Assembly (NCBI RefSeq): GCF_004010195.1
Contig: NC_057719.1
Location: forward strand, 38,438,758 to 38,474,817
Direction: 5' to 3'
Length of the DNA: 36,060 bases
Source of the DNA: Chiloscyllium plagiosum
Taxonomy: Eukaryota
Shown: one piece after another, positions 15,101-18,100 of the stretch
Numbering within the stretch: the stretch's first letter is position 1
How the letters are laid out: each line of letters opens with the position of its first letter
Notes under the pieces: generated by a model
What the model saw: the letters and a program-made list of their open reading frames with translations, nothing else
The model's database searches: none
Told to the model about the DNA's origin: nothing
Position numbers and translations under genes: made by a program

Positions 15101-18100
15101 TATCCTACTTGCTTTCTTTAGATGCCATGGAAGAGGTTTCCCTATCACTATTAATCTAGTACAGTATATTAGCAAAAACCACAAAATATTGCCTGGTCAC
15201 CAGATCCATCTCTTTTCAATATCTGTTTGAGGTTGAGCCGAAAGGTTGGGCACCTTGATATGGTATTTGACCCCAAAATAGATCAGCAACATACACATGC
15301 CATGATCTATATCCATTTCCTTTCATTGTCAAATTCTATTCCTGCCATAGCTCATCTGCTGCTGAAACCCTCATCCATATGAGGGTTACCTCTAGACTTG
15401 ATTAGTTTAACACATTGCTGGCTGACCTATCATCTTCTACATTCCATAAACTTAAGGTCAAATGAAACTCTGATCTACATCCTAAATCGCACAAATACCA
15501 TTCAACTATTAAAAAGCCTGCTGTCCTACAGCAACTTTCAATTTTGTTTTCATGACTTTCAAATTCTTTTCCTTGTTCAGAAATTCCCTCATGGCTTTGT
15601 CCCTGTCTCCAACTCTAACCTCGTTTAGCTCTACAACATTCAGATATATCTGCAATCTGCATTTTAATTGCTCTACCATCGACAATTGTACTTCCAAAAT
15701 GTTAAAGATCCAAGCCTGGAATTCCCTATCTAAACCACTTCTTTTTCTCTTCTTTTTAGAGGTTCCTTAAGACAATGCATCTGCTCTAATGTTCTCTTAT
15801 GTGGCTCAAATTCTGCATGGCATTGGTCTTGAAAGATGCCTTGGGATGCAAGCAGCTATACAAATATTAGTTACCAAATACTCTTGAAGAACAAATAATG
15901 AAACTAAACTGTTCCTCATAAATTATAATGAATATTCTTCCCCACACACATTGTGTCAAGAGATGAAAAGATATAACCGAGTAATTTGTTATTTTACTAT
16001 GATGTGAAAATAGACTTCCATTTTATTTTATTAGCAAACTATAGTGATCAAGAACATTCAAGAATATTAAAAACATGCTTCTTGATCATGAGGTTAGCAA
16101 CACCCATGTACAATTCAAGGCTTTTAATATAAAGATCATACAATTACAGAAAGCAAGTGCCATTACCTGAAGCTGTACGTGTAAGGTACTGTTTACTTCG
16201 TTGTTGTCTTGAAAGATTAGATTGGGAAGCACGTTTCTCTCTTAATTGTTCATCCTGTGATACTGGTGATACGCTCTATAACAAGTGAACGATTATATTT
16301 TAATTTGTTTTTCTTTTTTTAAAGTGCTCAATAACTTTATAAACATTTGAGTTGAAGATGAGCTTGTCTTGAGGATATAATCCTCTGCATTTTTAGATAG
16401 GTATTTCTACCCTGGTTAGGGAAGAGGAAGAGGAAGGGGAAAGCAGAGCGGAACCGTGCAGTGAAAAATGATCATTCTGGAGATAGATTCAGTCGAGTAG
16501 GCTAATGTGATAAGCGTGTTCAAAGTTAGTCAGAGGTGGTGTCAGGACATGGAGTCGAGGGGATGAAGGGGAAGGAAACTGAATGTGCTTAAGTTGACAA
16601 AAGGAAACAGATTAGTTAATTATGTCAGGAAAATATGCATCCAAGAAACTATTGTGCTATTTTCTGATGCCCATGAACATTTTTTAAAAGCCATCTAGAT
16701 TTCAGAAATTAAAATCTGACTATCAAATTCTTCATAAGGACATTTATACCAAAATCCAACTTTCACGTGGCTATTTTAGAGTGATTAACATTCAAAAACA
16801 ACAACAGGTGTTTGCTTGCTGTCTGTAAAGGTTTAACACTTCTAAATCCATAAAACATTTTATACAGTGAACACATTGAAAGGCTGTTACAGAACTGTGT
16901 AGTTAAAAACAACGGAACTAAACTATCAGAACACTTATTGGATATGTTAACTATAATTGCTACTTTCTGTATGATGTTCGCACAAGCATATTTTTCTGTG
17001 GTTACCCTGACAGTAAATGCACAGCCTATACATGTATAACACTTTAAATACATGGTGCCCATATGTTTCTTGATTTAGAAGCTACATTTCCATTGCAGTG
17101 TGAAACTCTCAGTATAAAGATGCTCTCTAATTAAAAGGAATGAGGTACACAGGATATAATGCTGAAAGAAAATTATGATGTACAAACAGTATATAATTCA
17201 CAGTTTAAATTCGCTGTGATGTTTTCTACTTTGATAAAGTTGAAGTCCATTCTGAACATTGCATATTCAATTACACTTAGAAATTTGTTTGAGACTCAAG
17301 ACTAATCCCAACTCCTCAGAACTTTTCATTTATGGTGTAAAAGAAAGGATGAAACAAATAATTACAGTAGTTCAGCTAATTTAAAAAATAATTTGGGCAC
17401 AAATTTCATCAATCTTATTGCACAGATTCCTAAGCTAAATTTGTATGCTAACAAAGACTGTTCAGATTAGGTGGATTGGACATGCTATATTGCCCATCGT
17501 GTGCAAGGATGTGCAGATTAGGTGGATTAGCCACAGAAGATGCAGGGCTACAAGGATGGGGTAGGGGGAAATGGGTCTGGGTGGGATACTCTTCAGAGGG
17601 TCGGTGTGGACTCAATAGGTTGAATGGCCTGCTTCCACATTGTAGGGATTCTATGATTCAAAATGGAAAATAAAATATCAGTGGACAGAAATATGGCACT
17701 TTTACTATCTATTTCCCATATTTACCAGTGGGAGATCCATAAGTACTTGCATGCCATCTCCTGGCCCCATGTGAGCTACATGGTTAAAGTTTGTTGGATT
17801 CGATATCAGTTTTGACCGCATCTCAGGATCTCTCAGCATTTCCCTGGTGTGAAAACACAGGTAATCAAAGTAAGTCACAAGTTTTGGAATTGCTCATAAA
17901 AATGGTTCAACATCTTTTAAATCACATGCATTTAACACTAAAGACCGTCTTCATCCCCTCGACTCCTACCGTCTTTGTTGTAACCTTTCCTCTTCTGGTA
18001 TCTTAAAAGCAAACCGCTTTTTGCTACGAGTTCTGACCATCTGTTTTCTGCTGTTGTCTGAAGTGTCTGGCACACTCAAATTATCTCCCTCTGTAAATAA

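Follow-up and report, generated by a model that had tools for sequence, protein, structure and literature searches.

Does an exon that carries a second CRIB motif together with an in-frame stop codon still serve the kinase gene in which it lies? The window, i.e. the whole stretch of 36,060 nucleotides from Chiloscyllium plagiosum analysed here, contains the 3' half of the MRCK-beta (CDC42BPB) gene on the minus strand, and its CNH exon is 100% identical to a Chiloscyllium MRCK-beta across 197 residues. Behind the constitutive CRIB exon of this gene, the initial annotation had described a hidden, formerly coding tandem-CRIB exon and had left three fates for it: (a) a poison exon, (b) the end of a tail-less double-CRIB isoform, or (c) a decaying pseudo-exon or sequencing error. 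We assign a probability of about 0.7 to one reading, namely that this cassette is a broken orthologue of an ancient second-CRIB alternative exon of MRCK-beta, skipped by default and decaying as a pseudo-exon without protein constraint, with NMD removing rare inclusion. Its basis could be observed directly: homology, intact copies elsewhere, the stop codon and skipping in RNA contigs.

Inspection of the exon anatomy showed that length, phase, both acceptors, the weak donor and the in-frame TGA are all present as first described (Table 1). The acceptor AAG lies at 16590-16588 and a second in-frame AG would set the exon start to 16578, while the donor matches the consensus at 4/9 positions versus 5-7 in four neighbouring constitutive donors. 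Acceptor, branch-like motif and donor GT are still in place. The TGA at 16491-16489 is followed by 26 open codons, after which the frame continues into the next exon. Three junctions lie 3' of the TGA (16411/16275, 16167/9309 and 9248/9115), the first of them 78 nt downstream, and NMD of any transcript including the cassette is predicted, as had been claimed. The acceptor of the last exon (9118-9113) is a tandem CAGCAG with a start at 9115 or 9112, and shark proteins are annotated both with and without the Q. The window further holds a short interspersed repeat (17460-17663) that is highly abundant in RNA contigs, and two long repeat copies in opposite orientation (11250-14763 and 23979-27125) with reverse-transcriptase-like frames, which we take to be LINE. 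These long copies are 82-98% complementary in blocks, flank the CRIB exons on both sides and could pair in the pre-mRNA.

Table 1 Features of the MRCK-beta cassette region, in coordinates of the window.
Feature	Position	Strand	Basis
Decayed MRCK-beta cassette exon (second CRIB), 177 nt, phase 0-0	16411..16587	-	Translation, profile, splice sites
Remnant of second CRIB motif; F, H, H retained, I, S, P positions altered	16504..16542	-	Profile and consensus comparison
Site of the 2-nt and 1-nt deletions; TGA at 16491-16489 within	16487..16495	-	Contig comparison by hand, DNA alignment
Weak donor AGG/GTAGAA; +5 is A here, G in organism C	16405..16413	-	Contig comparison, donor count
Arm B of perfect 18-nt inverted repeat, inside cassette	16551..16568	-	Repeat search
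Arm A of 18-nt inverted repeat; begins at +4 of the donor of exon 18090-17970	17949..17966	-	Repeat search
Constitutive exon preceding the CRIB exon	17970..18090	-	RNA-run contigs
Constitutive CRIB exon; Pfam PBD above cut-off	17726..17843	-	Pfam, RNA-run contigs
Next constitutive exon (SV exon), spliced straight to 17726 in 4/4 runs	16167..16275	-	RNA-run contigs
Penultimate coding exon	9248..9309	-	Comparison with annotated models
Last exon, coding part with normal stop	8984..9115	-	Comparison with annotated models

The homologous exon was found intact in chimaera, sharks, bony fishes, frog and reptiles, and orthologues annotated as coding in many jawed vertebrates bear out a formerly coding tandem-CRIB exon; since public annotation shows the orthologue in many vertebrates, the attribute "hidden" has to be dropped. 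Scored against a profile of 21 intact orthologous exons (hand-chosen, one per genus), the window peptide reached 55.1 bits versus a maximum of 15.2 bits among shuffles (0/2000 shuffles reach 55.1), and the same profile gave 40.8 bits for the MRCK-alpha exon and 23.1 bits for the real CRIB exon. The location of the cassette also matches its orthologues, i.e. the same intron, between CRIB exon and SV exon, and the same phase. With the coelacanth beta exon as query, 70 matches were obtained among 174 candidates (cluster representatives only), originating from chimaera, bichir, sturgeon, gar, bowfin, teleosts, frog, turtle, crocodile, lizards and birds. The MRCK-beta models of lungfish and coelacanth contain the cassette, and in the sharks Pristiophorus (sawshark) and Heptranchias it is nearly unchanged. 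Where intact, it surpasses the next constitutive exon in conservation, as seen for Pristiophorus versus Latimeria (55/63 against 24/34). Orthologous models that carry the cassette (Heptranchias X3, P0244; Callorhinchus X3, P0160; Latimeria X1, P0168; Danio X2, P0215; Anolis, P0116) share with the window its place after the CRIB exon, phase 0-0, a final R before the donor and the FEH..H motif. Unlike the window cassette with its stop, 3/8 core residues and donor +5A, they are open over about 59-64 residues (shark, chimaera, lobe-fin, lizard) with I-S-x-P intact.

The proposed homology to the alternative CRIB exon of MRCK-alpha (CDC42BPA) is equally well founded. In the same genome, the corresponding position of MRCK-alpha is occupied by an intact exon of 180 nt in phase 0-0 (L005:1188-1367), and in the bullfrog MRCK-alpha model P0269 the paralogous exon is spliced in. 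In contrast to its paralogue in the window, the alpha exon has the full core pattern, an open frame and a +5G donor, and no 18-nt arm (see below). Tan et al. 2003 (Gene 304:107) reportedly describes a second CRIB exon in MRCK-alpha. As the beta cassette is homologous to the alpha exon at the same position, the second-CRIB exon likely predates the MRCK alpha/beta duplication, judging from sequence comparison. Two ACTAAY motifs, presumably QKI-type, lie directly behind the intact alpha cassette (L005:1390-1435). For MRCK-gamma (L008, L009), no second-CRIB cassette was detected in the 20 kb downstream, nor was the next gamma exon located there. Searching longer proteins with the window peptide yielded 0/633 candidates, a weak search given that relatives exist; the first 32 codons of the cassette found themselves and one match without the motif (E 1.9) in their own genome, and a metagenome scan with the Latimeria exon confirmed 0/590 stretches. 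The alpha exon also matches 4-8 stretches in each of three uncharacterised lobster and crayfish proteins (P0270, P0271, P0274), possibly multi-CRIB proteins as judged by these matches, and one crustacean match is named P21-Rho-binding domain protein.

The second CRIB motif of the window is heavily eroded. Compared with the CRIB core consensus I-S-x-P-x(2-4)-F-x-H-x-x-H-V-G, in the form given in a passage of PMC8847673, the cassette has 3/8 core residues in the orthologous register, whereas intact beta exons have 6/8; a register shifted by one residue gives 4/8, with P kept and L/T in place of I/S. The core pattern is present in 74 of the 95 second motifs collected and absent from the window cassette. 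Pfam PBD does not match the cassette at E up to 1, matches the alpha exon at E 0.003, i.e. below cut-off, and recognises the real CRIB exon above cut-off. Over the cassette, the window is identical to Pristiophorus at 37/59 and to Rhincodon (whale shark) at 33/51 positions, as compared to 33/36 and 35/36 in the next exon. The window and Rhincodon keep 22/35 conserved columns, compared to 29-35 in the 21 reference rows, which themselves defined these columns. The whale shark model X8 includes its version of the cassette and does not have the window's stop; eight residues including I-S-P are lost, and a P-to-L and an M-to-I change are common to both species. These common changes suggest that relaxation likely began early in carpet sharks.

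Four runs (X1-X4; four studies, three organisms), taken as RNA by guess, contained joints ending in GT..AG. The skip joint 17726-16275 was present in contigs of 4/4 runs with a depth of 22-268; an inclusion joint was not found among the joints listed in the four runs, whose assembled contigs drop rare forms and whose tissues are unspecified. Runs X1-X3 have no cover over the stop and thus provide no evidence either way on it. Furthermore, the cassette is carried by 0/5 Chiloscyllium protein models, with 15 of 25 carpet-shark cluster members listed.

Insights into the origin of the stop codon came from organism C, the closest relative seen, which contributed one unspliced contig (depth 4.8 and thus error-prone) that covers 173/177 cassette bases and was read by hand. 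Relative to the window, it has two extra bases at 16494 and one extra base at 16487; its frame is open and reads S-T-E-I in the stop region, where orthologues read S-A-E-I. When the DNA is aligned with bird MRCK-beta and the genome's own MRCK-alpha, the window shows gaps at these two sites, and the bird shares the first of them. On these alignments, the TGA apparently stems from an ancestral (A/T)-E codon pair that is read in another frame after a 2-nt and a 1-nt deletion. Either deletion alone would break the frame, and the in-frame rejoining is thus no sign of function. In addition, donor position +5 (16406) is G in organism C and A in the window; +5G is implied by 28/29 read-through models of other species, the exception being Denticeps, which has +5A yet annotated inclusion. 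Several differences of organism C restore the ancestral state, unlike errors, and therefore lend support despite the single low-depth contig.

Alternatively, the TGA could be an assembly error or a polymorphism, and the cassette a coding exon of rare use whose motif has diverged; we regard this as improbable. In its favour, each deletion falls within a short repeat (a TC repeat or an A run), the net loss is 3 nt, and the open frame of organism C as well as the inclusion in whale shark X8 would fit. However, two errors within 7 nt would be required, and contigs of organism A match the window over 718 bases without a difference; an RNA-run contig of this organism is likewise identical at 16538-16710 and ends short of the TGA. 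Motif erosion and skipping would remain in any case. Within option (c), the decaying pseudo-exon is thus supported and the sequencing error is kept only as a low-ranked rival.

Comparison of the window with the organism C contig also allowed us to estimate rates of change. The cassette differs by 11 substitutions and 3 indels in 173 bases, the introns by 24 substitutions in 914 bases and the constitutive exons by 1 in 351 (Fisher test, cassette versus intron p = 0.017, versus constitutive bases p = 3.5e-5). Among the 11 cassette substitutions, 1-2 are synonymous, a number in line with the absence of selection (p = 0.2-0.46), and one difference converts the first CRIB histidine into arginine. 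Several points count against decay. Change in the cassette seems to outpace that in the introns, contrary to what pure decay would predict; the organism C exon is known from a single contig (depth 4.8); and low or tissue-restricted inclusion may be compatible with the contig data. The persisting acceptor, branch-like motif and GT, the annotated inclusion in Denticeps despite +5A, and the P kept in the shifted register weigh in the same direction.

The decay reading does not explain a perfect 18-nt inverted repeat, whose arm B inside the cassette (16551-16568) is complementary to arm A (17949-17966) in the intron that precedes the real CRIB exon. Across the 3.56 Gb genome this 18-mer yields exactly two matches, a complementarity of 18 nt is reached only by its own 2/156 window tiles and by 0/300 shuffles, and no other among 4030 window pairs gives a stronger duplex (-41.8 kcal/mol). 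The complementarity is therefore beyond chance and not repeat-derived. Two residue changes of the window in arm B relative to intact exons (S-to-P and H-to-L) both pair perfectly, and the single change of organism C in arm B, judged by hand, would give a G-U pair. Arm A is absent in bird beta (one bird) and in the genome's own MRCK-alpha. We also considered an old RNA duplex as the cause of the conserved S-R-H-H stretch and rejected it, given a similar stretch in bullfrog alpha and a bird beta without arm A. In its simplest reading, we infer the inverted repeat to be a recent inverted copy that may help to keep the exon silent. That the CRIB exon has turned into an RNA switch is unlikely: here, the 18-bp duplex would gate splicing depending on how quickly the intron ahead of the real CRIB exon is removed, and the exon would be selected as RNA, for self-silencing or as an NMD rheostat for MRCK-beta. 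Long-range complementary regions affecting splicing (PCCRs) are catalogued in PMC8052449, the main text of which does not mention CDC42BP. Similar to PCCRs as presented there, the window duplex is strong, has arms 1.4 kb apart, adjoins a donor and would loop out an exon; in contrast to them, it has one arm within an exon that was formerly coding, and the looped-out exon is included. Conservation in other sharks would lend importance to the duplex.

The duplex also bears on option (a), a young poison exon whose regulated inclusion, perhaps gated by the 18-bp pairing, lowers MRCK-beta via NMD. Recognisable splice sites, two more junctions behind the first, a duplex unique in the genome and best among the window pairs, and the G-U pair in organism C agree with this reading. 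As the NMD rule for poison exons, a passage of PMC13542418 gives a distance of more than 50-55 nt between the stop and a junction behind it, and the window stop, at 78 nt, resembles poison exons in this respect. However, unlike the poison exons described there, the window exon is not conserved, its inclusion was not seen in contigs, and its stop appears to be a by-product of recent frameshifts. The stop is absent in organism C and whale shark, and a conserved exon with a stop is not what we found, as the cassette is less conserved than its introns (11/173 versus 24/914). Moreover, donor +5G was lost in the same lineage, arm A has no counterpart in bird beta or the own alpha, and the intron containing arm A is spliced normally in 4/4 runs. 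Thus, with a stop not common to the closest relative, an exon changing faster than introns and an eroded CRIB core, option (a) is given a low probability.

The same evidence speaks against option (b) as an evolved function, and a cassette that ends a stable tail-less double-CRIB isoform is very unlikely. The stop follows five codons past the motif, and the hawk model P0237 likewise ends just past it. However, NMD is predicted unless the RNA ends early, the putative motif of 3/8 core residues escapes Pfam PBD, which detects the alpha exon, and the TGA is latent in the ancestral codon pair, so that frameshifts expose it repeatedly. Readthrough of the TGA or its editing to a sense codon, which the open frame rejoining the next exon might suggest, is the least probable of all, since this frame was inherited from a coding ancestor and is uninformative on readthrough, the context is, as noted initially, not TGA-CTAG, the fold at the stop is not unusual (z -0.24), no Rfam match occurs in the window and orthologues have no W or U at that position.

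We therefore return to decay of a second-CRIB exon as the preferred reading. Protein-level constraint would have been relaxed early in carpet sharks, and after the split from organism C the lineage would have lost donor +5G and the 2+1 nt that exposed the TGA. The normal mRNA joins 17726 to 16275 and encodes a full-length kinase with one CRIB, NMD would eliminate the rare transcripts that include the cassette as noise, and a double-CRIB form may come from MRCK-alpha with its intact exon.

A similar fate is seen in birds. Bird host DNA in a metagenome contig (L015:1076-1255, minus strand) carries the same MRCK-beta exon with two frameshifts and a donor changed from GT to AT, and several bird MRCK-beta models are frameshifted or end just past the motif. 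Judging from these sequences, the beta cassette apparently died independently in carpet sharks and birds. No mammals are named among the 70 matches to the coelacanth exon (cluster representatives only), which hints at a possible third loss.

Literature searches, with most subscription journals outside their reach, returned no paper on the second-CRIB exon of MRCK-beta. According to a passage of a 2014 review, MRCK splicing has not been systematically characterised, with Tan et al. 2003 cited on MRCK-alpha splicing (PMC3940853). Taken together, the window exon was correctly recognised as a second-CRIB exon and is best read as an exon known from the annotation of other species that has decayed in a lineage-specific manner. 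Decayed alternative exons of this kind are ordinary, and the value of the case lies in comparison. MRCK-beta is commonly depicted with a single CRIB but possesses an optional second CRIB exon, which in lineages from chimaera to lizards is more conserved than its constitutive neighbour, and this intact cassette is a better object for a Cdc42-binding test than the exon in the window.
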